The notes below the pieces were generated by a model. The model searched no databases, had not been told where the DNA came from, and saw only the letters and a list, made by a program, of their open reading frames with translations. From the IMG/VR virus record IMGVR_UViG_2778261559_000013: DNA of 64,000 nt, one strand, 5' to 3'. Every line of letters starts with the position of its first letter. Position 1 is the first letter of the stretch. Shown piece after piece: positions 5,662-58,409 of the stretch. Both the position numbers and the translations under genes were made by a program. Origin of the DNA: a virus. Lineage: Duplodnaviria; Heunggongvirae; Uroviricota; Caudoviricetes.

Positions 5662-8649
5662 ATGAGCTTAAGCGATCAGGTGGTAATGGCCACCAGCATA
5701 GAAACGCTGATCGAGCTGCTAAAGAACCTGCCCGATTATGGGCGGGTTTCGTATGTGGTGACAGCGAAGGGAGACGAGGTAAAAACAGCGTTTGATATCG
5801 TCGATGCCTCAGTTCTTTTGGTATCCAATACTCTGGATGGGAAAATTAATCCAGACTATCCCCAGGAACTTCAGCCGCGCGACCGGACCCGCGCATCCAG
5901 CCTTCTTCAGGTCAACCAGATATCCAAGGATTTGCGTCCTGCCCAGCTTACCGATTCCGGTTTATCCAGCCATGGCGCGCCAATAATTGGTGAGGACAAT
6001 GCCGTTGAGTCAGGTAATGGGCGGACCATGGGGATCATTAAAGCCTATCAGGACGGTAATGCGGATCGGTATCGGGAGTACCTGATTGAACATGCGACCG
6101 AATTCGGCATACGGCCTGAAAAGGTTGAATCAATGACGGCTCCGGTACTGGTGCGCCGCCGGTTAACGAAGGTTGACCGTGTTCAGTTTGCCAAGGACTC
6201 AAATATTTCTGATCTCCAGGAAATGGCAGCCAGTGAAAAGGCTTTTGTTGATGCCGACAGCATAACACCGGCGATGATGGCGTTGTTTAACCCGTCAGAA
6301 AGTGGAGATCTGCTTAGCCGCAGTAATGACGCGTTTATTCGCGGATTTATGACGCAAGTTGGTGCCACACAGGCGGCTGGCCTTGTAACTGAAGATGGGC
6401 GACCAACACGGCAACTTGTAGACCGTATACAAAACGCGATCTTTGCCAAGGCATATAAGGATGCGCGCTTGGTAAGGATGGTTGCAGAAGAACCTGATCC
6501 GGATATGCGTAATGTTCTGACGGCGCTTAATGCGGCAGCCAATGATTTTGTCCAGATGCAGGCTTTATCAGGAGAAGCGCACAAGCAGGCTGTGACAACT
6601 ATTGTTGATGGCATTGAGACAGCGGATAGCCTCGATAAAAAGGCGCTGGAGGCATTGAAAGATGCGGTAGACCTGGTAAGGCAATCGAAGGAGTCAGGCC
6701 AGCATATTACCGATGTTATTGCTCAGGGGGATATGTTCAGCGAAACGGCCCCGGAAGTGAAAGCACTCGCGTTGTTCATCGTCGCGAATAACCGTAGCGC
6801 GAAGCGTATGGCCACCGCCTTTAAGTTGATGGCTCAACGTATCAATGATGAGTTACAGCACCAGGGCCAGGCGCTGGGGGATATGTTTGGCGGCGGCGAT
6901 GTGTCGTTACAGGATATCCTTCGCCAGGTGTCTCAGGAACTGGAAAACGAAGGCATGCAAGGGATATCCGGCGGTCTTTTCGAGTCCGTTTCCGGCGGTA
7001 GTTACAACGGTGTTGCTCCGTATACCAGTTTGCTATTACATCGGGCATCCGGCATCAAAGACATTATTCATCTGATCAGGCTGCTTTCCCGCACAGATCC
7101 CCAGGATGAACAGCTTGTACAAGTGCTTGCGCATTTTGTTCGAATGCCTGTTGCCGACGTGAAAAAATGGTGCCGATTATTCGGTATCAGCAATTCGTTA
7201 CTTCGCGGATTGTTAAATCACGCATCCTCCCTTGGGCGCGACGGCTTTGATGAGATAGCGCAGGCGATAAAAAACGGAGATATGCCACCAGCTATTGACT
7301 GGTTTTCCATTCGCCCAACCAGAGTGAAAGCATTCCTTAGCGCGGCGCAATCAGCATCACCATTGGCAGAAATGGTTCAGAGGTTATCGCTCATATTCAC
7401 AGACCATACCGCGTTGGGTGATCTGACTCTGGACGAGATGAAAGAAGCCTCCATTCAGTGGGCCGATCAACAAAATGAGGTTAACTCAGACTTCTTGCCA
7501 GCATTCAGGAAGGCCGTTAGTAAAGCGGATGATGCCCGTGGAATTCTGAAGGCATTTAAGGCATTGCAAAGTCGTGTTAATAAACATGTCGGTGATATCG
7601 ATGGGGTAACGGCGGAAGGCCGGGATATCCTTAAAGAGCACGGCATAACGCCAGAGTTTATTGATGAGATCAGGACTGATATGCAGCGTGAGGTCGTATC
7701 GTCCCTGCAAATCGTAGCCAGAGCGTTGGCGGATGCTAATCCGAAGAGTGCGGCCATTGTTAACCGGGTTATTGGTGATATTGAAGCATCGGAGGGCATG
7801 GGGGCGCTGAAACTCTTCCTTTCGCGAGCGTTTAATCCTAACGGCAATATTCTCCCTGGCATTATTGGTGAGGCTAAAAAGTATGTCAGTGAAGAAGAAC
7901 TTGAGCAGCTTGACCAACTACTTAAGCGATTCTCATATAACCCGCAGACACGCTGGCAAATGAATCAGCGAAGTATGGGTTCGGTCCACGAGAAAGTGTT
8001 ATCTGCCATGAACAGTGCGATCGCAAACTCATCCGTATCTGAAGAAAAAGCTCTTGAGTGGGCCGACTCTTTTATCACAGAAGAAGTGGAAGAAGTCCGC
8101 GCTGGACAGAATGGTGGGATAGACCTGCGCAAGGAACTTGCTGATATTTATCGCCTGACCGGCGGGAAAATATCGACCTTATCAAAGGTAGTTCACCACC
8201 AGGGAAGGGCATATGCAAATCTTAATGGTGTTGTTGCTGTCAATTTGAACGATGAAAATGCAAGTGCACTGTGGCACGAGCTGGGTCATCATCTTGAGTA
8301 CAGTAACCCTGGTTTGTTAGAGAAAGCCCGGTCATTCCTGAAGGCCAATGTTGAAGGGGATAAGCCATCTTTCGTCAATATCGGTGGGCGTGGCAAGCCT
8401 GAATGGTGCTTCAGATCTCGATTGAGTAATATTTATATGGCGAAGGTATACCCGCCAGCCTCAGTAAGTAACACCGGGAAAATTCGGCAGAAATCACCGA
8501 CTATTTCCAAAACGTCAGCAACGGAAGTATTCTCTATGGCTCTTCAGTTGTATCATGACAAAGAGGCCGCTGCCGCATCACTGATGAATGGTGACGGATT
8601 GCTGGAACTGTTATTAGGTGTGGCAAAGGAGCTAAATAATGCAGATTAA
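5662..8649 (+). CDS. DdrB-like large capsid/antirestriction protein with a C-terminal HExxH zincin motif, 995 aa
   Basis: Co-operonic with darA. Contains ALWHELGHHLEYSNPG (HELGH, nt 8275-8292), a classic zinc-metallopeptidase signature. Name by synteny. Confidence 0.6.
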   Translation: MSLSDQVVMATSIETLIELLKNLPDYGRVSYVVTAKGDEVKTAFDIVDASVLLVSNTLDGKINPDYPQELQPRDRTRASSLLQVNQISKDLRPAQLTDSGLSSHGAPIIGEDNAVESGNGRTMGIIKAYQDGNADRYREYLIEHATEFGIRPEKVESMTAPVLVRRRLTKVDRVQFAKDSNISDLQEMAASEKAFVDADSITPAMMALFNPSESGDLLSRSNDAFIRGFMTQVGATQAAGLVTEDGRPTRQLVDRIQNAIFAKAYKDARLVRMVAEEPDPDMRNVLTALNAAANDFVQMQALSGEAHKQAVTTIVDGIETADSLDKKALEALKDAVDLVRQSKESGQHITDVIAQGDMFSETAPEVKALALFIVANNRSAKRMATAFKLMAQRINDELQHQGQALGDMFGGGDVSLQDILRQVSQELENEGMQGISGGLFESVSGGSYNGVAPYTSLLLHRASGIKDIIHLIRLLSRTDPQDEQLVQVLAHFVRMPVADVKKWCRLFGISNSLLRGLLNHASSLGRDGFDEIAQAIKNGDMPPAIDWFSIRPTRVKAFLSAAQSASPLAEMVQRLSLIFTDHTALGDLTLDEMKEASIQWADQQNEVNSDFLPAFRKAVSKADDARGILKAFKALQSRVNKHVGDIDGVTAEGRDILKEHGITPEFIDEIRTDMQREVVSSLQIVARALADANPKSAAIVNRVIGDIEASEGMGALKLFLSRAFNPNGNILPGIIGEAKKYVSEEELEQLDQLLKRFSYNPQTRWQMNQRSMGSVHEKVLSAMNSAIANSSVSEEKALEWADSFITEEVEEVRAGQNGGIDLRKELADIYRLTGGKISTLSKVVHHQGRAYANLNGVVAVNLNDENASALWHELGHHLEYSNPGLLEKARSFLKANVEGDKPSFVNIGGRGKPEWCFRSRLSNIYMAKVYPPASVSNTGKIRQKSPTISKTSATEVFSMALQLYHDKEAAAASLMNGDGLLELLLGVAKELNNAD

Positions 8650-15638: not shown

Positions 15639-18600
15639 ATGAACAAGCTATCTATGGGGGTGTTTCGCTGTTCAAGTGTCAGCGAAATATTGAAATACAT
15701 TAGTGCAATAACATCTCACCGAGCGCCGATTAGATACGGCGTGGAAAAGGTGGAAGGCAAAAGCTATGACCGACTACGCCGGGAGGCGAATCAGAAGGCG
15801 ATAGATTTGCTTAATTCGCTGGTGGACGGCGCGACACTGACAGATGAACAGCGCCAGATCCTGGCTGGGTACACCGGCGAAGGCGGCATTGGCGGGTCCG
15901 TCTCCGAATATTACACACCAAAGCCGATCGCTGAAGGTGTCTGGGAGATCATGAAGCTCTACGGCGCGGACGTAGGTAACACTCTGGAACCATCGGCGGG
16001 AACCGGCGTTTTTAATGAGACAAAACCGGTTGGTACGGTGATGACCGCGACTGAGATCAGCAGTGTTTCCGGTCGTATAAACCAGCTGTTGCACCCGGAA
16101 GACAGCGTACAGATTTCTCCGTTCGAACAACTGGCTGTAAGCACGCCTAACGATTCATTCGACCATGTTGTGGGTAACGTTCCGTTCGGTGGTCGTGATA
16201 ACACACGCAACATCGATAAGCCTTACGCAGAAGAAACGGACATGGGTTCTTACTTCATGCTCCGCATGCTGGACAAGATAAAGCCAGGCGGATTCATGTG
16301 CGTGATTGTGCCGCCGTCCATTGTTTCAGGTTCAAACATGAAGCGGTTACGCCTGCGCCTATCACGGAAAGCTGAATTTCTTGGTGCCCACCGCTTGCCT
16401 ACCGGTACTTTTGACGCAAACGGGACCAGTACAGTTGTTGATGTGGTGCTGATGCGCAAACATCCGGCAGAGATGGCTGAGAAAATCCCCCTGGTGGATG
16501 AAAGCACTCTCGAATCGGCAAATGTGCTTTGGCCAACGTTTATTTCTGGCAAGTGGTTTGAAAAGGATGGCCGCCGGTTTGTTCATGGCACCCAGGAAAA
16601 GGGCTTCCAGGGGCGTATTGAGGTTCGTGCCGACGGTCAGATTGATAACCAGGCTCTTAAAGCGAAGCTGATTCATCGTTTCGAAAGCCGTATCGACTGG
16701 TCTTTGCTCGATATGGCTGAACCGTCACCGACCGCAGACGTTGTTGGTGAAGGGGAAATGCGCCTGATTAATGGCGTATGGCAAAAATATGCTGGTGGTC
16801 GCTGGATTGAAGCTGATGCCGGGAAGGAACTTAAGATCGATGCTGCCAGTTATGGCGCGGATAGCTGGGAGGCTCTTCAGCGTAACCTGACTACAACAGA
16901 AGGCCGTCTCGGCATGACATTTACCCAGATGGCAAATGTCCGCGATAAGTACACCACATCAATCAGCGACGATATGGTGCAGCTGGTGGACTGGATTAAC
17001 AGCCAGCCTGAAAAATACCGTGAACGCTTGTATCGCGGGGCGATGATTGGCCGGATGTTAATTGAATATCAGGACATGAAGGCCGCCGGGCATAGTGCTG
17101 AACAAATCGAACAGCAGCGCCTTTCTCTGGTATCCCGTTTGCAGGCAGAGATTGACCGTTTTGGTAACCCCGGTCGCGGTCCGATAGCGAAATTGTCGGG
17201 GAGCGGTGCGCGCGCCTGGTTTGCTTTCCGTGGTGCAATTAAGCTGGATGGCACTATTTCTGACGAGCTGACAGGGAAGCTGGTTACGCATGATTCCAGC
17301 GCAAGTTATGACTCCACCAGCTATCAGGACACCCTGCGTTATCTCTATAGCGATCTCACCCGCGATCCAATCCAGCTCGATGATTTCCGCCTTGCGTTTA
17401 CCGGCGAACTGCCAGCCAGTGATGAAGAGTTGCTTAATTTATTGGCCAGCACCCCTGGTATTGCGGTTTCACCGTATGGCGGGATTGTTCCGTTCGCCCG
17501 CGCCACCAGCGGCGACATTAACGAGATAGTGGCTCCAAAACAGGAATTCCTCGCCACACTCCCCGACGGTCCAGTAAAGAACAACGTCCTTAATCAGCTG
17601 GCAGCTATCGAAGAGAAGCGCATCAAGACGCCAGCAGAGAATATCCGGTTTAAGCTCAATAGCCGTTGGTTCGACCGTTCCGTCATTCTGGAATTTTTGC
17701 AGGAAAACGGCTATCCGGATCTGCGCTATGTGCAGTCAGTGCAGCTGGAAGGCGACGAAATGGTTTCTGACACCTATCACGGTGGTGATGGTCTGTTCGT
17801 CGGGCACCGATACGGTGTCGTCCAGCGCAAGGATAAAGAAACAGGTGAGATTCGCTACGAGTGGGACCGTAAATCAGGTGAAAACGCGACCGGGTTCCCG
17901 GCACAGCTGGAAAAGTATCTCAATGGTGCGCGTATCGGTGGCAAAGATAGCGCGACGGCGAACGGCTACCGCGAGCAGATGGCACTGCTTGAGGACCAGT
18001 TCAATAAGTGGATCAAGACGCACGATCGCTACGATGAGCTGGTTGCCAAATACAACGATGTGTTCAATAGCAATATCCCGTATGAACACTCTGGCGATCC
18101 GCTTGGGTTGAAGGGATTAAGCGGTAAGCGCCAGCCATTTGATTACCAGAATAGCGAGGTGCGCCGACTGTCCGAAGATGGGCGCGGCATCCTGGGCTTC
18201 GGCACCGGGCTGGGTAAAACCACGACCGCGCTGGCGCTTGAGGCGTTCAACTATGAGAACGGTCGCTCCACCCGTACTGCGTATGTAGTGCCTAAATCAG
18301 TGCTGGAAAATTGGTATTACGAAGCAAAAGAATTCCTGAGTGAAGAGGCATTCAGTAACTACTTGTTCGTCGGTCTTGATGTGCTGATGGATGGCGATCA
18401 GATTCGCCAGGTGCCGGTGCTCAATGAGAACGGTAAACCTGTTCTTGGTACTGATGGCACTCCAGTTATGCGCGATGCTCTTAAGCTGGCAGATGAAGCC
18501 ACTATCACGGCGCGGATGAACGCGATCCCGCACTCAAATTACCGTGCAGTCGTGTTTACCAAAGAACAATACGCCCGCATTCCGCTACGTGATGACACCG

Positions 18601-21600
18601 TAGATGAGCATGCACAAGACATGCTTTATGACTTCGTTGCCGCCGGGCGCGTAGCCAGCGCAATGGACTCCGACTCCCACCGCAAAGAGGCGGCGCGTCG
18701 CCGGGTATTGTCGGAGTATTCAGATACCGGTACCGAAAAAGCAGAGAAGTATCCGTACTTTGAGGATATGGGCTTCGACAGCGTGATTGCTGACGAAGGC
18801 CACAACTACCGCAATAGCTATAAAAATGGTCGCGAAGCGTCACAGCTGGCCTATCTGCCCACCAGCGCGGTGGCGCAATCGGCGCGAGATATGGCAATCA
18901 AAAACGCGTACTTGATGAAAAAGAATGGCGGGCGCGGACCGGTTCTCCTGACTGCAACACCAGTCGTTAACACCCCGATCGATGCATACAACATGCTTTC
19001 TCATGTTCTGCCGAAGGAATACTGGCAGAAGATGGGGATCTACAGTCCTGATGACTTCGTAAAATTCTTCGGCAAGACCAGGCTGGAAACGGTACAGAAA
19101 ATCAGCGGCGAAGTTGAAGAAAAAATGGCGCTGGTGGGTTTTGAAAACCTTGATGCGCTGCGCGGCATATTCCATCGCTGGACAACGCTTAAAACGGCGG
19201 AAGACGTTAAGGATACCGTGGAGATCCCGGAACTGGACGAACACCAGCAGGATGCACCACTTACTGAAGAACAACTGGCGGCGTATGAAGAATTGCGTCA
19301 GCAGGCGGAAGCGGCGGCCAAAGCCAACAATGGTGTAACGACCTCGGTCAATGAAGACGGCGTGATTGAGCACGAGAAAGCCCGTCCGATCTTCTCAATA
19401 ATCAGGGATATGGACCGCGTATGTACTGACATGGACCTGTACTATCGCCGGATCACCTATCGTTTCCTGCCGGAGTACGCCGATGCGGTGCAGCAGCTGG
19501 CAGACAGTTTGCCTAAACAAGCCACCAGCGAAGACGACGACAGTGATGATTCAATCACGCAGCAATCGCAATACTCCCTGATAGATAAGGGCGAGTTTAT
19601 TCAGTTGCAGGTTCCGGAAGCGTTCGAGCAGGAAGTGAATAAGCGCCTGGCCAGGTTTGGCATTGACGAACAGACCGTAACTCACCCCGTTACGCCCAAA
19701 TACGCGAAGCTGATTGCCACGCTGAAGGAGTTTTTCCCGGAAGGTAAGCAAATCATCTTCACCGATGAAAAAACGCAGCACCAGAAGCTCAAGCGCATTA
19801 TCTGCAATGCTCTTAACCTTGAACCTTCAAAGGTGGGGATACTGAATGCTCAGACGGTTGCCGAGGCAGGTAAAACCGGTAAGAAACTGAAAGCGGTTAA
19901 ACCGCCGAAAGAGTTACCGGATGAACCAACAGATGCACAGATAGCGAAATACAACGAGCAAATGGCTCTGTATGACGCCTATATCGCGCAGCAAAATGAA
20001 ATGTCGTTGGGCGGTCTGGAAAAGATTGCAGCCGACTTCCAGGAGGGCCGGACTCCGATCATCATCTGCAACAAAAAGGCAGAGGTGGGTATCAACCTGC
20101 ATCGAGGAACGACTGACATCCATCATCTGACGTTGCCATGGACTCCAGCCAGTATTGCGCAACGAAACGGTCGCGGTGCCCGAGTTGGCTCCAACCGTGC
20201 AAGCGTTCGCGTTCACTACTACTGCGGCAAGGGTTCTTTCGATGAATACCGACTGAAGACGCTGAAGCGTAAAGCAGGCTGGATCTCCGATATCCTCCGT
20301 TCAGATAAGTCAGAAATGGAGAACGCCGACGCCAACGATATGATCGAAATGCAGATGTATACCGCTAAGGATGATGGCGAACGTCTGGCAATGATGCAGG
20401 TTCAAATGGATAAGGCGAAAGCCGCGCAACGCGCTCGCCAGAAAGAACAGGCTACTATCGACCTTCAGAACTACATCAAGGCGCAGCACGCAGCTGGTGA
20501 GGATGTGGAGGTGCTTACCGCTGAATTAGAGCGAAGCAAAGCGGAACTTGAAAAGACCACCGCCGAGGTAGCTAAATTCAAACAGGCGGCAATGGCCAAG
20601 GCAGCGGATAACGCAGACTGGAAGGCACGCTGGGGGAGTGTCCATCACACAGACCGTATGTTGTTAGCACAGTATCGCGCGTCGTTGAAAAGCGCCATTC
20701 AGCGCAAGGCTAATATCTCTCAAGCCATCTCCCGCTATGAGAAATTATTGAACCGTACTCAGAAGGCCGCGACGGATATCAAACGCCTGCGCCCGCTGGT
20801 GGAGGATGCATTAAATAAAGGCATTCTGGATGTTGATCCTGACCTGGTTAACCATGCGAGTGAGTTCCTTGTTATCGGCGATCGCTCATGGCGTGTAGGC
20901 CAATACTACGATTGTGCCGGTGATATCGTTCGCATTAAGTCGCTGGACTTCGACAGCCAGCGCGCAGACGTGGAGATCATCTTCACCTTCAAAGGCACCA
21001 AATCTGGTAACTGGGATGTGAAGACGCTGGATAAACAGGTTGATGTAACTCCCGATGAAGATGCTGTTATGCAGAAAATCAGTGGTGGCGTCTCCATCGC
21101 CGGGATTAACGACATCGTTTCCTGTGACGATTTCTACCGTTTCCAGCAGCGCGGCATGATCAAAATCACTGACTCATACGGCGTTCAGACTACAGAGTCA
21201 GGCTATAGCATTGATTTTGTTGGTACCTATACGGACCCACTGAAGCATGCGGTTTACCCGGATCGCCGTGACGGCGCGCTGAAGTCGTCAATTGCAAAAT
21301 GGGTGCTTGGTATGATGTCGGAAGGGAATAACCGCCAGATCCGTTCGGCAGAAGCATTCCTGGTTGAACTGTTTGGCTCCAATTATGGCGATGTAATCGC
21401 GTCATACGGAGATACGCTATCCCCTGAAGCAATTCAGGAGAAAATAGCGGATGCGATCGCCAGAATGCCGGAGAAAACAAGCCAGGGGGCTACTCGTAAC
21501 GGGGATTCTGAACTTGAAGTCACCAATGCCATTTTCGGTACCAATGAGTTCCGGGCGTCAGATTATGAGATCACCACAGCACAGTTTGGCACCATTGGCA

Positions 21601-22406
21601 TTTACAGCAATAAAGACGAGATCAAGCAGGCAATGGACGCAGCAAGCGCGCGCATTGCAGCAGAACGGAAAGTCAATCTGAATCATGCAGTCGCCGCGCT
21701 GACTCAATCGTGGGTAACAGCAATCAGGGAGGCCGCCACCACAGGAAAAATCACACCGGCAATTGCGGATGTCGTAAACGACGGCTCTAAATTTATGGAT
21801 GCCTATAAAATGGATGCGGTGCAGTTGCCATCAGCCTATGGGCAACTCAGCTATCGCATGACCTACAACCTGGTATCAATGTTTACCGACCTTGCCATCC
21901 TTGGGCTGGTGGACCTTAACGAGGTTACGCCGGAATTGCTCAGCATGCGCAAGAATCATGTGGAGATATTGCACAGAATTAACACGGTACTTGCCGGGCG
22001 CACCGATGAAGAGAAACAGGCAGACGCTGATCGGATAAACCTGGCCCTTGGCAACATCACGGAGGAAGAAATTGCTGCCAGAAACGAGAAACAAGAAGAG
22101 TTATCATCAATACAGGGTGATGCCACCAGCATAGCTCAGTCTCTTGGTCTGAATTATCGCGTATCCACCGCCGACCTGAAGATGATGTACGCACCAAAAT
22201 TCGCCGCTGGCGAGGTATTTGGGCTTCAGGAAGCCTCCGGCATGAAAGGGGTTCTTTTCCGTGCGAAAGACGCAATCAAGGCGAAATTCGGCGCTCGCTG
22301 GTTGCCAGCGAAGGCGAAGAACAGCGACTTCCCAGGTAACTGGTGGATTATCGAGACAAAACACAACGTGGCGGACGTTCTGGCCGTCATCCAACAATAC
22401 GCATAA
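15639..22406 (+). CDS. darB: DarB antirestriction protein: N-terminal N6-adenine methyltransferase-like domain fused to an SF2 (SNF2-like) helicase, 2255 aa
   Basis: AdoMet motif I LEPSAGTGVF (aa 116-125), motif IV GNVPFGG (nt 16173-16187), Walker A GFGTGLGKTTTA (nt ~18195-18230), DEGH box (nt 18792-18803), motif III LLTATPVVNTP, motif VI QRNGRGARVGS (nt ~20157-20192). 2255 aa matches my recollection of P1 DarB. Confidence 0.85.
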   Translation: MNKLSMGVFRCSSVSEILKYISAITSHRAPIRYGVEKVEGKSYDRLRREANQKAIDLLNSLVDGATLTDEQRQILAGYTGEGGIGGSVSEYYTPKPIAEGVWEIMKLYGADVGNTLEPSAGTGVFNETKPVGTVMTATEISSVSGRINQLLHPEDSVQISPFEQLAVSTPNDSFDHVVGNVPFGGRDNTRNIDKPYAEETDMGSYFMLRMLDKIKPGGFMCVIVPPSIVSGSNMKRLRLRLSRKAEFLGAHRLPTGTFDANGTSTVVDVVLMRKHPAEMAEKIPLVDESTLESANVLWPTFISGKWFEKDGRRFVHGTQEKGFQGRIEVRADGQIDNQALKAKLIHRFESRIDWSLLDMAEPSPTADVVGEGEMRLINGVWQKYAGGRWIEADAGKELKIDAASYGADSWEALQRNLTTTEGRLGMTFTQMANVRDKYTTSISDDMVQLVDWINSQPEKYRERLYRGAMIGRMLIEYQDMKAAGHSAEQIEQQRLSLVSRLQAEIDRFGNPGRGPIAKLSGSGARAWFAFRGAIKLDGTISDELTGKLVTHDSSASYDSTSYQDTLRYLYSDLTRDPIQLDDFRLAFTGELPASDEELLNLLASTPGIAVSPYGGIVPFARATSGDINEIVAPKQEFLATLPDGPVKNNVLNQLAAIEEKRIKTPAENIRFKLNSRWFDRSVILEFLQENGYPDLRYVQSVQLEGDEMVSDTYHGGDGLFVGHRYGVVQRKDKETGEIRYEWDRKSGENATGFPAQLEKYLNGARIGGKDSATANGYREQMALLEDQFNKWIKTHDRYDELVAKYNDVFNSNIPYEHSGDPLGLKGLSGKRQPFDYQNSEVRRLSEDGRGILGFGTGLGKTTTALALEAFNYENGRSTRTAYVVPKSVLENWYYEAKEFLSEEAFSNYLFVGLDVLMDGDQIRQVPVLNENGKPVLGTDGTPVMRDALKLADEATITARMNAIPHSNYRAVVFTKEQYARIPLRDDTVDEHAQDMLYDFVAAGRVASAMDSDSHRKEAARRRVLSEYSDTGTEKAEKYPYFEDMGFDSVIADEGHNYRNSYKNGREASQLAYLPTSAVAQSARDMAIKNAYLMKKNGGRGPVLLTATPVVNTPIDAYNMLSHVLPKEYWQKMGIYSPDDFVKFFGKTRLETVQKISGEVEEKMALVGFENLDALRGIFHRWTTLKTAEDVKDTVEIPELDEHQQDAPLTEEQLAAYEELRQQAEAAAKANNGVTTSVNEDGVIEHEKARPIFSIIRDMDRVCTDMDLYYRRITYRFLPEYADAVQQLADSLPKQATSEDDDSDDSITQQSQYSLIDKGEFIQLQVPEAFEQEVNKRLARFGIDEQTVTHPVTPKYAKLIATLKEFFPEGKQIIFTDEKTQHQKLKRIICNALNLEPSKVGILNAQTVAEAGKTGKKLKAVKPPKELPDEPTDAQIAKYNEQMALYDAYIAQQNEMSLGGLEKIAADFQEGRTPIIICNKKAEVGINLHRGTTDIHHLTLPWTPASIAQRNGRGARVGSNRASVRVHYYCGKGSFDEYRLKTLKRKAGWISDILRSDKSEMENADANDMIEMQMYTAKDDGERLAMMQVQMDKAKAAQRARQKEQATIDLQNYIKAQHAAGEDVEVLTAELERSKAELEKTTAEVAKFKQAAMAKAADNADWKARWGSVHHTDRMLLAQYRASLKSAIQRKANISQAISRYEKLLNRTQKAATDIKRLRPLVEDALNKGILDVDPDLVNHASEFLVIGDRSWRVGQYYDCAGDIVRIKSLDFDSQRADVEIIFTFKGTKSGNWDVKTLDKQVDVTPDEDAVMQKISGGVSIAGINDIVSCDDFYRFQQRGMIKITDSYGVQTTESGYSIDFVGTYTDPLKHAVYPDRRDGALKSSIAKWVLGMMSEGNNRQIRSAEAFLVELFGSNYGDVIASYGDTLSPEAIQEKIADAIARMPEKTSQGATRNGDSELEVTNAIFGTNEFRASDYEITTAQFGTIGIYSNKDEIKQAMDAASARIAAERKVNLNHAVAALTQSWVTAIREAATTGKITPAIADVVNDGSKFMDAYKMDAVQLPSAYGQLSYRMTYNLVSMFTDLAILGLVDLNEVTPELLSMRKNHVEILHRINTVLAGRTDEEKQADADRINLALGNITEEEIAARNEKQEELSSIQGDATSIAQSLGLNYRVSTADLKMMYAPKFAAGEVFGLQEASGMKGVLFRAKDAIKAKFGARWLPAKAKNSDFPGNWWIIETKHNVADVLAVIQQYA

Positions 22407-22439: not shown

Positions 22440-22880
22440 ATGGCCACACTATCTGATACAATAAAACCGAATAAAACATATCTTGAGGCGGTACTCCGTA
22501 CAGCGTTGTTAGGAAAGACAGAAGACGAATACGTTGATTTCTTCCTGTCAGGGCTACGCGGGCGATTACTGAAAAATCCCCGCCTGTACCGCAGCTATGG
22601 TCCATACTGGCCGGAAATTAAAAAATTATTACTGGAGCGCGGTTATGGTAATTTCGGTCGTCTCGTTGACCGTGACGTTCGCAAAATTTACCGTTATGAC
22701 CGCCCGGCGCTAACACTCATAGCCGCGACGCTCTACAGCCAGGAGCGTTTTGATAATGGTCAGATATACTCAGCCTGGCATTTACTGCCAGTGCCTGAAG
22801 AAGTTGACGACCAGGACTATGAGTTTGAGTCTTACGATTTGGAAGTTGAAGCATTGGCACAGGCTGGAGAGAAAACTTGA
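22440..22880 (+). CDS. Ulx-like protein, 146 aa (by position downstream of darB)
   Basis: Tightly linked to darB and overlapping the next small gene. Name by synteny only. Confidence 0.45.
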   Translation: MATLSDTIKPNKTYLEAVLRTALLGKTEDEYVDFFLSGLRGRLLKNPRLYRSYGPYWPEIKKLLLERGYGNFGRLVDRDVRKIYRYDRPALTLIAATLYSQERFDNGQIYSAWHLLPVPEEVDDQDYEFESYDLEVEALAQAGEKT

Positions 22881-23125
22881 AAAAGCGATACTACACAGTA
22901 AAGCATGGGACGCTACGAGCATTACAAGAGTTTGCTGACAAGCATAACGTTGAGGTGCGCAGGGAAGGGGGAAGTAAAGCTCTGCGCATGTACCGTCCGG
23001 ACGGGAAATGGCGTACAGTCGTCGATTTCAAAACAAACAGTGTTCCCCAGGGCGTCCGCGACCGGGCATTCGAAGAATGGGAGCAGATCATCATAGATAA
23101 TGCATTGCTTCTCAATGCTGATTGA
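22877..23125 (+). CDS. Lxc-like small protein, 82 aa (by position)
   Basis: ATGA overlap with the upstream gene. Name by synteny only. Confidence 0.4.
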   Translation: MKKRYYTVKHGTLRALQEFADKHNVEVRREGGSKALRMYRPDGKWRTVVDFKTNSVPQGVRDRAFEEWEQIIIDNALLLNAD

Positions 23126-23207
23126 GTTTTGTTGGCCCGGTTTGCACCGGGCGTTTCACAAACAATCAACTGGTTTGTAGTTCCTGCGGCGAGATGAATT
23201 ATTAATA

Positions 23208-23816
23208 TTATCGTGGTGCCGATGATGCGATAGCCTGTATGATGTTATCAATATCGTTATCGTTCAGCATGAATATAGGTACACCATTAGAGTTTGCATT
23301 TTTTTCAGTGCTCATCAAACAAAGCCCCTCATACATGCCGCGAGTTTTTTTGAAATTGGCGACTGATGGAGTGGTGTAATTTCCTTTAAAGTGCATTCCG
23401 GCTGATTCATAAAAAGGAACCAAATCAGACTGGCAAATCAAAGCGACCTCATTTGGAAATGCAAGTATTTCTGCCAGTATATTACTTCCAAGTCCATTAC
23501 CACGATATTGCTCATATACATATATTTTATGACAGTACAACGGAAAATTTCCCGATGGATGTCCGAAGATTAAAGCGTATCCGAACAAGTTTTCTTCATT
23601 AGTAAAGCCCATAATGCGCAAATGACCGGCTCGGTAACACTCTTCAAAAACGTTAATTATGTAGCTTCTCGCTGCTTTCAGCTCCTCTTCTGTCGGGAAC
23701 ATCATCAACCCCATAAGCGATGGAGTATAGGCCAGATCCTGAAGAATCCCATTAGCTTCATTTTCGAAAATTAGCGGTAAGTGCGGTACAATTTCATTTG
23801 CCGAGGTATTAGACAT
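23208..23816 (-). CDS. GNAT-family N-acetyltransferase, 202 aa (low-GC cargo)
   Basis: GNAT motif A YVYEQYRGNGLGSNILAE and motif B-like LICQSDLVPFYESAGM; AT-rich; own upstream palindrome and terminator context. Confidence 0.75.
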   Translation of the reverse strand: MSNTSANEIVPHLPLIFENEANGILQDLAYTPSLMGLMMFPTEEELKAARSYIINVFEECYRAGHLRIMGFTNEENLFGYALIFGHPSGNFPLYCHKIYVYEQYRGNGLGSNILAEILAFPNEVALICQSDLVPFYESAGMHFKGNYTTPSVANFKKTRGMYEGLCLMSTEKNANSNGVPIFMLNDNDIDNIIQAIASSAPR

Positions 23817-23824
23817 AGTATGGT

Positions 23825-23848
23825 GAGTCCTTTGTTTTCAAAGGACTC
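23825..23848. promoter_or_regulatory. perfect 10-bp inverted repeat (gagtcctttg-tttt-caaaggactc) over the presumptive SD, 9 nt upstream of the GNAT start
   Basis: Seen directly. On the mRNA the AAGGA Shine-Dalgarno lies in the right arm of the hairpin. Confidence 0.4.
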
Positions 23849-23959
23849 ATGTTATCAGTGATAATCGTTTGTTGTAATAGTGTTGATAAAATAATTTTCT
23901 ATTATGTAAGCAAGCTCATTTTTATGACGGGTAATGCAAAAAAAATAGAATCAAAAAAC

Positions 23960-24003
23960 TAAAAAATAATAATTCATGGGGTTTTACACCATCAAAAGTC
24001 CCC
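23960..24003 (-). terminator. rho-independent terminator after the 213-aa gene
   Basis: Minus strand: GGGGAC-UUUUGAUGGUGU-AAAACCCC hairpin followed by a U-rich run. Confidence 0.45.
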
Positions 24004-24014
24004 ACTATAAATTA

Positions 24015-24656
24015 TTAGAAATAATTATGCTTGCCTGTTAATACCCCTTTCGGCACTTTTTTTTGTTCCAGTGTCTGGGTACCCAGAATTATGTTAATAA
24101 GTGGACTTAGTAACGATGGTTCCTGGCGGGCTTCAACTTCTCCAGCCATTGCCCTGATGTAGTCGGCGCTGGCAACGTTGTTGTATTCCGTCGCAAAGCA
24201 ACATAGTAACGTCAGAACATGCTCTGTCGTTATTTCGCTCCAGTTGATGTTGAAAAATTCATCGCCTTTTTTATCGTGTTCGGAATCGAAGATGCTTTGG
24301 TGAAGGATGTATTTGCCGGATTCCTTGCGCGGTAACTTGATCGCTTTCTGGCGTTCCAATTCCTTGTAAATCTGCATTGCTTCAATCAGTACCGGTCTGC
24401 CGTTCATGAAGGGATCACGCAACCTTACACGCTGGCCAACTCGACCGGTAATAAAGCTGTTTTCCTCTTCCACCAGCACGATAAAACCCTTTTCCTCTTT
24501 TTCTCGCAATTCGCGCAGCAGCTGGAGTTCCATATCGCGGCGGCGTTCAGGGTAGCTGGTCCGCTCAGCCATTATCAGCTCATTGTTGATCCATGCAGCA
24601 GTCATTGACGCCGGTTTGCCGACGCTCATTGAAACAACGCATATTTTCTTATCCAT
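24015..24656 (-). CDS. hypothetical protein, 213 aa (low-GC cargo, upstream of the GNAT gene)
   Basis: Start set at the ATG at 24654-24656 (MDKKICVVSMSVGKPASM...). No motif I recognise. Confidence 0.55.
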   Translation of the reverse strand: MDKKICVVSMSVGKPASMTAAWINNELIMAERTSYPERRRDMELQLLRELREKEEKGFIVLVEEENSFITGRVGQRVRLRDPFMNGRPVLIEAMQIYKELERQKAIKLPRKESGKYILHQSIFDSEHDKKGDEFFNINWSEITTEHVLTLLCCFATEYNNVASADYIRAMAGEVEARQEPSLLSPLINIILGTQTLEQKKVPKGVLTGKHNYF

Positions 24657-24836
24657 AGCGCCCCTACAAAAAAGAAAAGCCACCAGCGGCGGCTTAGCAA
24701 TACAACTGAAGGTAGCGCCCGGTACTCAGACTGTGCCGTCCATGGAATATTTGAAAAGGGATCCATCCGTACCGGGCGTGTGATGATTCTGACTGAAGTC
24801 ACTTGTCAGTTGTCAATCATTTATCATTAAAAATAA

Positions 24837-24853
24837 TATATTTATTAGTGCAT
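24837..24853 (-). promoter_or_regulatory. C1-operator-like sequence (ATGCACTAATAAATATA) upstream of the 213-aa gene, overlapping the ref stop
   Basis: Matches the operator core GC.CTAATAAAT; 11/17 to consensus, so weak. Confidence 0.3.
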
Positions 24854-25405
24854 GATGTTTGCCATCTCATAGGCGTCAGCCAGTAACTCCATCTCTGACT
24901 TGTTCAGCAAGGTGAATTCTTTCTTGCCTCCAACCACACCATCGGCATGAACAGGGACCAGCCATGGGTATTTTTCTCTTACTTCAGCCGGAGCTGCATG
25001 CTGGTGGTGCCATCTACAAAGTGGCAATTGCTTTTTATGACAACCCGGCGCGGTACGACCGGCGATATGGTGCAGAGACACCTCATTAGATATTACTCCA
25101 TGCATATAGCAGGCAATGCAGGGGAGAGCGCCAAGAGCATTGGCGACGCGCCGTTCCTCCGCCGTTGGTGTTCTCCCCTTCAAGCCACGAGATTTTATTT
25201 TTACCACGCTTTTCCGCGTTTTGCTGGCTGGTGGGCGCTCTTTCTGTTTAGCGATACGGCGGTCGAGAGTATCCCGCATTTTCTGATATTGAGATTCTCG
25301 CCAGACCGGATCAGCCAACTTCTCCCGTTGCCGAGCGATCGCCCGTTCTCTGGCTGCCTTCTGCCACTTGCGGCACTGTTCAATTTTTTGTTCGATTGTT
25401 TTCAT
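24845..25405 (-). CDS. ref: Ref recombination-enhancement HNH endonuclease, 186 aa
   Basis: MKTIEQKIEQCRKWQKAARERAIARQREKLADPVWRESQYQ...CIACYMHGVISNEVSLHHIAGRT...CRWHHQH matches P1 Ref as I remember it. Start set at the ATG at 25403-25405. Confidence 0.85.
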   Translation of the reverse strand: MKTIEQKIEQCRKWQKAARERAIARQREKLADPVWRESQYQKMRDTLDRRIAKQKERPPASKTRKSVVKIKSRGLKGRTPTAEERRVANALGALPCIACYMHGVISNEVSLHHIAGRTAPGCHKKQLPLCRWHHQHAAPAEVREKYPWLVPVHADGVVGGKKEFTLLNKSEMELLADAYEMANIMH

Positions 25406-25652: not shown

Positions 25653-25964
25653 TTATTTCATCATGGAAGCTGTTAACGCTTTGGACCTTGCTGAACTGAT
25701 TGAGAGGACTTTGTCAACGTACCCCAAAAATTCGCCAAACTCAGACATCACTTTAGCAAAACCGCGCCGTGCTTCTTCCTCGGTGGCGTTCATCACGAAA
25801 TGTTCAGCACCACGCATACTTTTGACAGGGAACGCAACGGATATTGAGTCAATATCAGGCATTCTATCGCTCAGCTTTACAGTGACAATGACGGCTGGCG
25901 ACTGAATATTAGTGCTTACAGACAGCACTACATATTTTCCGTCGATGTTGAAATCCTTTCTCAT
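25653..25964 (-). CDS. Cra-like protein (by position between cre and ref), 103 aa
   Basis: Name by synteny only. Confidence 0.4.
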   Translation of the reverse strand: MRKDFNIDGKYVVLSVSTNIQSPAVIVTVKLSDRMPDIDSISVAFPVKSMRGAEHFVMNATEEEARRGFAKVMSEFGEFLGYVDKVLSISSARSKALTASMMK

Positions 25965-26014: not shown

Positions 26015-27046
26015 CTAATCGCCATCTTCCAGCAGGCGCACCATTGCCCCTGTTTCACTATCCAGGTTACGGATATAGTTCATGACAATATTTACGTTGG
26101 TCCAGCCACCAGCTTGCATGATCTCCGGTATTGAAACTCCGGCGCGGGCCATATCTCGCGCGGCTCCGACACGGGCACTGTGTCCAGACCAGGCCAGGTA
26201 TCTCTGACCAGAGTCATCCTTAGCGCCGTAAATCAATCGATGAGTTGCTTCAAAAATCCCTTCCAGGGCGCGAGTTGATAGCTGGCTGGTGGCAGATGGC
26301 GCAGCTACGCCATTTTTTCTGACACGGCAAAACAAGTAGTTATTCGGATCATCAGCCACACCAGAGACAGAAATCCATCGCTCGACCAGTTTAGTTACCC
26401 CCAGGCTAAGTGCCTTCTCTACACCCGCGGTACTAACCAGCGTTTTCGTTCTGCCAATATGGATTAACATTCTCCCACCGTCTGTACGTGAGATATCTTT
26501 AACCCTGATCCTGGCAATTTCGGCTATACGTAACAGGGTGTTATAAGCGATCCCCAGAAATGCCAGATTACGTATATCCTGGCAGCGATCGCTATTTTCC
26601 ATGAGTGAACGAACCTGGTCGAAATCAGTGCGTTCGAACGCCAATGCCTGTTTTGCACGTTCACCGGCATCAACGTTTTCTTTTCGAATCCGCCGCATGA
26701 CCAGTGAAACAGCATTGCTGTCACTTGGTCGTGGCAGCCCGGACCGACGATGAAGCATGTTTAGCTGGCCCAAATGTTGCTGGATAGTTTTTACTGCCAG
26801 ACCGCGCGCCTGAAGATATAGAAGATAATCGCGAACATCTTCAGGTTCTGCGGGAAACCATTTCCGGTTATTCAACTTGCACCATGCCGCCCACGACCGG
26901 CAAACGGACAGAAGCATTTTCCAGGTATGCTCAGAAAACGCCTGGCGATCCCTGAACATGTCCATCAGGTTCTTGCGAACCTCATCACTCGTTGCATCGA
27001 CCGGTAATGCAGGCAAATTTTGGTGTACGGTCAGTAAATTGGACAT
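26015..27046 (-). CDS. cre: Cre tyrosine recombinase, 343 aa
   Basis: MSNLLTVHQNLPALPVDATSDEVRKNLMDMFRDRQAFSEHTWKMLLSVCRSWAAWCKLNNRKWFPAEPEDVRDYLLYLQARGLAVKTIQQHLGQLNMLHRRSGLPRPSDSNAVSLVMRRIRKENVDAGERAKQALAFERTDFDQVRSLMENSDRCQDIRNLAFLGIAYNTLLRIAEIARIRVKDISRTDGGRMLIHIGRTKTLVSTAGVEKALSLGVTKLVERWISVSGVADDPNNYLFCRVRKNGVAAPSATSQLSTRALEGIFEATHRLIYGAKDDSGQRYLAWSGHSARVGAARDMARAGVSIPEIMQAGGWTNVNIVMNYIRNLDSETGAMVRLLEDGD is the canonical Cre sequence. Confidence 0.98.
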   Translation of the reverse strand: MSNLLTVHQNLPALPVDATSDEVRKNLMDMFRDRQAFSEHTWKMLLSVCRSWAAWCKLNNRKWFPAEPEDVRDYLLYLQARGLAVKTIQQHLGQLNMLHRRSGLPRPSDSNAVSLVMRRIRKENVDAGERAKQALAFERTDFDQVRSLMENSDRCQDIRNLAFLGIAYNTLLRIAEIARIRVKDISRTDGGRMLIHIGRTKTLVSTAGVEKALSLGVTKLVERWISVSGVADDPNNYLFCRVRKNGVAAPSATSQLSTRALEGIFEATHRLIYGAKDDSGQRYLAWSGHSARVGAARDMARAGVSIPEIMQAGGWTNVNIVMNYIRNLDSETGAMVRLLEDGD

Positions 27047-58381: not shown

Positions 58382-58398
58382 ATTACACTAATAAATTT
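58382..58398 (+). promoter_or_regulatory. C1 operator (ATTACACTAATAAATTT), overlapping an oppositely oriented perfect operator
   Basis: 15/17 match. Confidence 0.5.
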
Positions 58399-58409
58399 AT
58401 TAGAGCAAT
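58393..58409 (-). promoter_or_regulatory. C1 operator, perfect consensus ATTGCTCTAATAAATTT, overlapping the dmt stop codon
   Basis: 17/17 match on the minus strand. Confidence 0.65.

Follow-up and report, generated by a model that had tools for sequence, protein, structure and literature searches.

What does a P1-like phage-plasmid carry between its lxc and ref genes, a two-gene module or a single piece of cargo beside the phage backbone? The question is raised by a 64,000-nt stretch of the virus record IMGVR_UViG_2778261559_000013 (the window), which is a P1-like phage-plasmid. Between lxc, on the plus strand, and ref, on the minus strand, the window has two minus-strand open reading frames (ORFs) encoding proteins of 202 and 213 aa, as reported by a first-pass annotation made from the sequence alone. 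That annotation took the 202-aa product for a GNAT acetyltransferase (hereafter GNAT), left the 213-aa product unrecognised, and proposed that the two form an uncharacterised defence or toxin module in the place where P1 has mat, res and mod. The present analysis shows that the 213-aa gene is mat itself, an ordinary part of the P1 backbone and no partner of GNAT, and that GNAT is a solitary cargo gene in a hotspot; of this anatomy we are almost certain. As to the role of GNAT, we put the reading that it may serve as a single-gene defence of the lysogen, probably by interfering with incoming phages, at somewhat less than an even chance.

Mat and the limits of the cassette

The 213-aa protein is identical to P1 Mat (YP_006475.1) at 202 of its 213 positions (95%) over the full length (E 1e-155), matches phrog_1837 with an E value of 1e-112, and has the same length as the annotated Mat of phage RCS47. 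In a megablast comparison with phage records, the window from about position 24070 rightwards is 96-98% identical to P1, P7, RCS47 and their relatives, in which mat is annotated at this place. The gene lies downstream of ref with its operator and promoter, as in P1. The C1-operator-like sequence that had been noticed upstream of it is, base for base, the Omat operator (formerly Op2b; CATGCACTAATAAATATA) annotated in P1 as a protein-binding feature, and overlaps the end of ref, while Pmat with the late promoter LPmat (-35 TTGACA at 24811-24816, -10 at 24786-24791) is identical to the annotated P1 features. mat is a named gene of the backbone for which a genetic phenotype exists. Mat has no match in Pfam, NCBIfam or PADLOC, which is why no motif could be named in it at first pass, and PADLOC, NCBIfam and PHROGs give it no functional assignment.

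The GC content is 0.31-0.41 across about 23200-24100, versus 0.45-0.55 in both flanks. Since the 213-aa ORF has a backbone-like GC content (0.45-0.51), with most of its length outside the low-GC segment, the dip is limited to the 202-aa gene and its upstream leader, and the AT-rich two-gene islet described earlier shrinks to these. It becomes a cassette of about 23126-24010 with a single gene and a GC content of about 0.38; the start of the islet, set at 23126 at first pass, is the true left edge of the slot. The view that mat-res-mod of P1 is replaced as a whole is likewise right in part, because only res and mod are exchanged for the GNAT cassette and mat is kept.

The idea that GNAT and the 213-aa protein work together, as toxin and neutraliser or as a two-gene defence, drew on the adjacency of the genes, their common strand and the separate signals of each. 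A 7-kb query against PLSDB returned 711 P1-like records, with slot contents taken from rows sampled down the ranking; on this basis Mat is present in about 700 P1-like plasmids irrespective of the adjoining cargo, and it is also present in RCS47, where the slot is empty. The GNAT homologues with at least 85% identity all lie between lxc and mat. Those with at most 76% identity all lie elsewhere, never beside Mat or Lxc and with no common neighbour, and the first-pass annotation had itself held that a failure of the two genes to co-occur would speak against the module. GNAT and mat further differ in GC content and in evolutionary history. With the supposed partner being a core gene of P1 that accompanies every alternative cargo, the two-gene module retains next to no probability.

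Nor does another partner emerge. Among 11 genomic and four viral non-P1 loci no conserved partner gene of GNAT was found, and clustering of the flanking ORFs of the 11 non-P1 loci gave no common gene beyond near-identical Pseudomonas strains. The 198-bp gap between GNAT and mat has only chance ORFs of at most 37 aa, none of antitoxin size.

The mat gene of the window differs from that of P1 in its last ~25 codons, which are a different DNA allele, and in the lack of an in-frame 37-codon N-terminal extension. Compared with P1 and RCS47, the minus strand lacks one G (GTA-GGGGCGC) at about 24664, shortly before the mat ATG (24656). The 1-bp deletion throws the extension annotated in P1 (a 250-aa Mat) out of frame, so that Mat has 213 aa, its length in RCS47. 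The same extension contains a terminator-like hairpin and T-run (AAGCCGCCGCTGGTGGCTT TTCTTTTTT; 24677-24695, minus strand). The missing G and the hairpin together suggest that the 213-aa form may be the real Mat, and the P1 mat annotation too long. At the other end of the gene, the intrinsic terminator claimed earlier is a weak terminator-like hairpin (Table 1), which the terminator scan did not call.

Table 1. Positions of genes and signals in the window, on and around the lxc-mat slot
Feature	Position	Strand	Remarks
darB	15639-22406	+	
ulx	22440-22880	+	RefSeq label 'Ulx-like anti-restriction'
lxc (C1 modulator), P1 backbone	22877-23125	+	corresponds to lxc as annotated in P1 and RCS47
GC-rich hairpin GGCCCGGTTTGCACCGGGC, just after lxc	23134-23152		fold -19.4 to -20.8 kcal/mol, z -2.3 to -2.6
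202-aa GNAT-fold N-acetyltransferase ORF, only true cargo gene	23208-23816	-	RefSeq WP_000072647.1; sequence of PDB 9S30
Perfect 11-bp stem with 4-nt loop over the GNAT Shine-Dalgarno	23824-23849	-	arms 23824-23834 and 23839-23849, 100% complementary
Degenerate copy of the leader inverted repeat TCGCTG(A/C)TAACATCAG	23845-23861	-	pattern search: one window match at 3 mismatches, 0.13 expected
AT-rich leader/promoter region of the GNAT cassette	23850-24010	-	GC ~0.31
Weak terminator-like hairpin with U-run, just 3' of the mat stop codon	23976-24005	-	fold -13.6 kcal/mol, z -1.2
213-aa ORF, mat (maturation control protein), P1 backbone	24015-24656	-	
Pmat / late promoter LPmat	24786-24816	-	identical to annotated P1 features
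C1 operator Omat	24837-24854	-	base-identical to P1 feature; overlaps end of ref
ref (RecA-dependent HNH nuclease), P1 backbone	24845-25405	-	Pfam RecA_dep_nuc E 6e-51; annotated in P1 and RCS47
c8	25653-25964	-	
cre	26015-27046	-	

The lxc-mat slot and its occupants

In alignments of nine variants, homology ends exactly at the lxc stop codon and resumes within the last ~25 codons of mat. The variable slot begins on the left at this stop codon, homology being lost at once after it in all cargo variants. On the right, the last ~25 mat codons (24015-24090) show strong DNA divergence between cargo variants with the peptide still similar (mat 3' ends of loci L035-L040, L001 and L002). The mat 3' allele of the window is that of the CapRel-bearing plasmids, to which the segment 24006-24080 is ~95% identical. 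The diverged alleles indicate that the recombination junctions of the slot lie inside mat. Such a polymorphic slot would swap self-contained cassettes, mostly of one or two genes, probably by recombination in the conserved flanks.

In P1 the interval between lxc and mat holds mod and res together with an IS5, and res/mod constitute EcoPI, a type III restriction-modification (R-M) system. In RCS47 it is an empty site of 40 bp, and in the record of phage SJ46 a RelA/SpoT gene lies between lxc and mat. The sampled PLSDB rows have as occupants RelA/SpoT (CapRel), SIR2, YaaC with a 169-aa gene, PIN, DUF2971, EAL (with or without HTH), DUF4145 and GNAT. PADLOC models of defence or candidate defence are matched by four of the seven alternative cargo types tested, namely SIR2 (PDC-S25/ThsA-like), PIN (PDC-S34), DUF2971 (PDC-S31) and RelA/SpoT (PDC-S33). 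CapRel-SJ46, from phage SJ46, is an experimentally validated fused toxin-antitoxin system of anti-phage defence (PMC9712102), and type III R-M and CapRel are among the common defences of P1-like elements according to a 2025 preprint (10.1101/2025.09.12.675607). With EcoPI, CapRel and PADLOC-matching cargos among its occupants, the slot is a defence-rich hotspot in which most occupants, though not all, have defence functions.

GNAT shares its slot with EcoPI, whose function is defence. EcoPI, however, is a two-gene system of ~5 kb that acts on DNA and has no sequence relationship to GNAT. CapRel-SJ46 is, like GNAT, a single self-contained gene of the slot and lies on the same strand; it has a RelA/SpoT fold and pyrophosphorylates tRNA, whereas GNAT has a GNAT fold and is predicted to transfer acetyl groups. 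Three slot cargos without a PADLOC match are further, unassigned candidates: YaaC with the 169-aa gene (L036:3682-5231), EAL (L039:4621-5310) and DUF4145 (L020:4056-4778).

The acetyltransferase and its homologues

The assignment of the 202-aa protein to the GNAT fold holds, the scores being above cut-off for the Pfam models Acetyltransf_10 (27.3 bits, cut-off 23.6) and Acetyltransf_1 (25.6 bits, cut-off 20.7). The acetyl-CoA pyrophosphate loop between beta4 and alpha3 (consensus R/Q-x-x-G-x-G/A), here R105-G106-N-G108-L-G110, is invariant in 19 family members. The invariant residues of the family include Y94-C95-H96-K97, E102, R105-G106-x-G108-x-G110-S111 and F135-Y136, together with the C-terminal motif P180-x-F182-x-x-N185-x-x-D188. 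From the invariance of the acetyl-CoA loop, H96 and Y136 we infer that GNAT is catalytically competent. In the AlphaFold 2 model (pLDDT 88) a GNAT core of alpha/beta fold without beta1 is flanked by three helices on its N-terminal side (residues 4-62) and by one C-terminal helix (186-199). Family members are few: a word-indexed search gave 23 sequences, and a full hidden Markov model (HMM) scan of 1.84 billion representatives gave 57 clusters at E < 1e-10, nearly all of 186-217 aa.

A crystal structure of the exact sequence has been deposited. Chain A of PDB 9S30, named "GNAT family N-acetyltransferase", is 100% identical to GNAT over its 202 residues, which follow a 30-residue N-terminal tag; the protein is therefore already under study and priority is probably taken. 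A search of the available literature turned up general context only, on CapRel-SJ46, phage-plasmid surveys and integron GNAT cassettes, and no paper on the protein itself (9S30, WP_000072647). The entry is absent from the structure library used, which ends in April 2026.

Among characterised proteins, those closest by profile are serotonin/arylalkylamine N-acetyltransferase (AANAT; E 5.5e-5 over 76 residues, a weak match), an integron cassette protein, the spermidine/spermine N1-acetyltransferases SSAT1/2 and plant polyamine acetyltransferases. H96 aligns with His122 of AANAT and Y136 with Tyr168, Y94 stands in place of His120, and the LVPFY motif is common to both proteins. The likeness to AANAT and the SSAT enzymes amounts to ~20% identity over the beta3-beta6 core only, and, unlike these enzymes, the modelled family lacks beta1 and has a long N-terminal helical region and an added C-terminal helix. 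Weak as it is, the likeness to acetyltransferases of arylalkylamines and polyamines is consistent, and it speaks for a small molecule or an amine-bearing substrate, rather than aminoacyl-tRNA, as the predicted target, though it falls short of a substrate assignment. The integron cassette protein of PDB 3i9s matches the family profile weakly (E 3e-4). Brc113 and BrcP, GNAT-domain cassettes of mobile integrons, have been reported to protect against phages (bioRxiv 10.1101/2024.07.02.601719); compared by description only, they are like GNAT in being single-gene GNAT-domain cassettes on mobile elements, and provide a precedent for phage defence by cassettes of this kind. PHROGs gives no functional assignment for GNAT.

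The comparison with TacT and AtaT drawn at first pass does not extend far. With TacT, AtaT, ItaT and KacT, GNAT has in common the fold and the occurrence on mobile elements. Unlike these toxins, it has no adjacent RHH/DUF1778 antitoxin, is ~30 aa longer and carries different decorations. No specific sequence or fold similarity to these tRNA-acetylating toxins is seen, and the profile search did not retrieve them, so that sequence, fold and gene context all leave the toxin analogy unsupported.

It should be mentioned here that we have also considered a fused toxin-sensor in the manner of CapRel. Such a protein would be a growth-arresting acetyltransferase, for example of aminoacyl-tRNA, held off by the family-specific N-terminal helices and/or the conserved C-terminal PIFMLNDxDI helix and freed by a phage protein, with abortive infection as the outcome. 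The slot is the same as that of the fused toxin-antitoxin CapRel, the helical extensions at both ends are conserved across the family, as is the length of nearly all members, and the buried Shine-Dalgarno described below suggests a dose-sensitive product. GNAT toxins that acetylate aminoacyl-tRNA do exist (PMC9177977). We regard a toxin-sensor as improbable.

In PLSDB the GNAT cassette is 99.5-100% identical in 17 plasmids and ~97% identical in two more, and an allele of 84-86% identity occupies the same slot in Escherichia albertii pESA138_1 and E. coli pUTME-12-1. Among 5,426 complete E. coli genomes, 12 have the gene, always on P1-like plasmids, and a tblastn search of 50,697 phage records found it in none. 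The more distant homologues occur in other settings. In Raoultella the gene is an opposite-strand moron of a lambdoid prophage, near hicA, in Enterobacter mori it adjoins two NACHT-domain genes, and in Serratia aquatilis, on an integrative and conjugative element (ICE), it has a T4 coupling protein gene on one side and a type II R-M system on the other. One Pseudomonas homologue is on a mobile element with hipBA, one from Pseudomonas sp. has Dsr1 directly downstream, and that of P. moorei is 3.2 kb from GajA (Gabija). The copies of Serratia sp. PL17 and of two IMG/VR viral contigs are on a ParM-bearing element. These neighbourhoods resemble the usual pattern of defence genes, although the resemblance is anecdotal.

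Some details of the Pseudomonas loci may be added. The Dsr1 beside the homologue of Pseudomonas sp. ERMR1:02 (L013:8609-12387) consists of two ORFs, of 907 and 352 aa, which match consecutive parts of one PADLOC Dsr1 model; a frameshift, decay to a pseudogene or an error of sequencing may explain the split. Upstream of the homologues of Pseudomonas syringae and P. petroselini there is a three-gene set (255, 408 and 147 aa; L015/L016:5227-7596), the 408-aa middle protein of which has a weak match to the E1-E2 models of PADLOC (ubiquitin-like conjugation). Three related Pseudomonas loci have a 270-aa gene after GNAT.

Leader, expression and possible role

The palindrome reported over the GNAT Shine-Dalgarno is real and slightly longer than first described, with a stem of 11 rather than 10 bp and a 4-nt loop. 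Its 3' arm (CAAAGGACUCA) includes the Shine-Dalgarno AAGGA, 11 nt upstream of the ATG, and the folding z scores are -3.9 and -4.4. In the alleles of 84-86% identity the same Shine-Dalgarno is buried by another pairing (CUCCUUC...GAAGGAG; z -3.5 and -2.6). As a family-wide feature the hairpin was rejected, being significant in the two P1-borne alleles only, each with its own pairing. A conserved leader of ~100 nt accompanies the gene in unrelated genomes, on P1-like plasmids and an ICE as well as in a lambdoid prophage and a chromosomal island. The hairpin just after lxc (Table 1) is likely a bidirectional terminator between lxc and the GNAT gene, and most cargo variants have a comparable GCCCGG...CCGGGC hairpin after lxc, though not an identical one.

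No C1 operator is found upstream of GNAT at up to 3 mismatches, and control by C1 was rejected on this ground. The lack of the operator and the buried Shine-Dalgarno point to an expression in the lysogen that would be independent of C1 and restrained at translation. The cassette carries one stand-alone gene with an AT-rich leader of its own, whose product is predicted to act as an acetyl-CoA-dependent N-acetyltransferase. In the lysogen the gene is probably transcribed whatever the state of C1, with its level probably kept low by the hairpin.

The same observations bear on the possibility that GNAT is counter-defence cargo, which would help P1 against the immunity of its host, for instance through acetylation of one of the host's defence proteins or of a signalling molecule. 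GNAT is two genes away from the anti-restriction genes darB and ulx, and one distant homologue adjoins a gene for an LPD38 polyvalent protein, of a sort typical of anti-defence loci associated with transfer. However, the other occupants of the exact slot are defence rather than anti-defence genes, GNAT has no recognisable late promoter or C1 operator upstream, and homologues are also found in chromosomal islands beside Dsr1, Gabija and NACHT genes. We consider counter-defence very improbable.

For the defence of the lysogen, the proposed scheme is that GNAT would acetylate a primary amine and thereby shield the lysogen from other phages or mobile elements. This role, the most likely one, agrees with those of the other slot occupants. 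Taken as one combined reading, the anatomy and the defence role have, in our estimate, slightly better than an even chance. GNAT is a plausible stand-alone enzyme of defence or lysogenic conversion in a known hotspot.

A number of results weigh against a defence role. The defence and resistance HMM sets, run on both proteins, give no PADLOC or NCBIfam/AMR match: GNAT, like Mat, reaches no family of PADLOC-DB v2 at E <= 1, and the best NCBIfam/AMR equivalogs for GNAT stay at E 0.05-0.12, with 12-13 bits against cut-offs of 86-171. Some occupants of the slot are not recognisable as defence, YaaC, EAL and DUF4145 having no PADLOC match, and only ~3 of 11 distinct GNAT contexts have a strong known defence system within 3 kb, an association that is anecdotal. 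The Shine-Dalgarno hairpin is not significant in the Raoultella, Enterobacter, Serratia and Pseudomonas copies, which have a small hairpin only. On the minus strand of the leader a single site looks promoter-like (23995-23966), and the promoter is not confidently identified. The likeness to small-amine acetyltransferases, finally, is equally expected of a gene for detoxification or metabolic conversion. As no model of an antibiotic or metabolite acetyltransferase and no defence model is matched, GNAT is still an uncharacterised candidate; of the earlier claim of an uncharacterised defence module in a known hotspot, the part that concerns GNAT alone stands and the module does not.

In a lysogenic conversion, the substrate acetylated by GNAT would be a small exogenous amine (for instance an antibiotic, peptide-nucleotide toxin, polyamine or gut arylalkylamine), to the benefit of the host and independently of phages. 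Against such an enzyme, no NCBIfam equivalog, resistance acetyltransferases included, is better than E 0.05, and the gene is rare and confined to P1-like plasmids in the 12 E. coli genomes that have it. Defence genes also predominate in the slot and in the islands where it is found, and a Shine-Dalgarno buried so tightly is unusual for a resistance determinant. Lysogenic conversion is in our view unlikely.

Returning to defence of the lysogen, a more specific form of it would make GNAT a new single-protein immune effector with acetyl transfer as its means of stopping infection. The enzyme may be self-inhibited and phage-triggered in the style of CapRel, or may acetylate a small amine on which incoming phages depend, such as a polyamine or an amine-bearing phage component, and it would be a swappable cassette of P1-like phage-plasmids, lambdoid prophages, ICEs and defence islands. 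We hold this form tentatively, as rather unlikely.

The present check is mainly corrective, in that a false two-gene module is removed and the candidate is reduced to one gene of 609 bp with defined cassette boundaries. Databases already record the hotspot, mat and the GNAT annotation, and a structure is deposited; the novelty left concerns the function of one small, rare family. If GNAT protects lysogens, an acetyl-CoA-dependent single-gene effector would join the short list of one-protein immune systems, and the lxc-mat slot could be mined directly for new defence genes, the likewise unassigned YaaC + 169-aa and EAL + HTH cargos included.

The leader also contains an inverted repeat, which in its family form, TCGCTG(A/C)TAACATCAG, lies 30-45 nt before the ATG (at ~7955-7975 in loci L003, L006, L011 and L012, and upstream of GNAT in L019/L020); the copy in the window is degenerate (Table 1). 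The repeat may be an operator or a 5'UTR element. A LexA box was considered and rejected, the spacing being CTG-N7-CAG and not CTGT-N8-ACAG. The C1 operator consensus ATTGCTCTAATAAATTT has 17 matches in the window at up to 3 mismatches, versus 0.39 expected, a dispersed set typical of the P1 immunity regulon. A perfect match at 58393-58409 overlaps a second one at 58382-58398.

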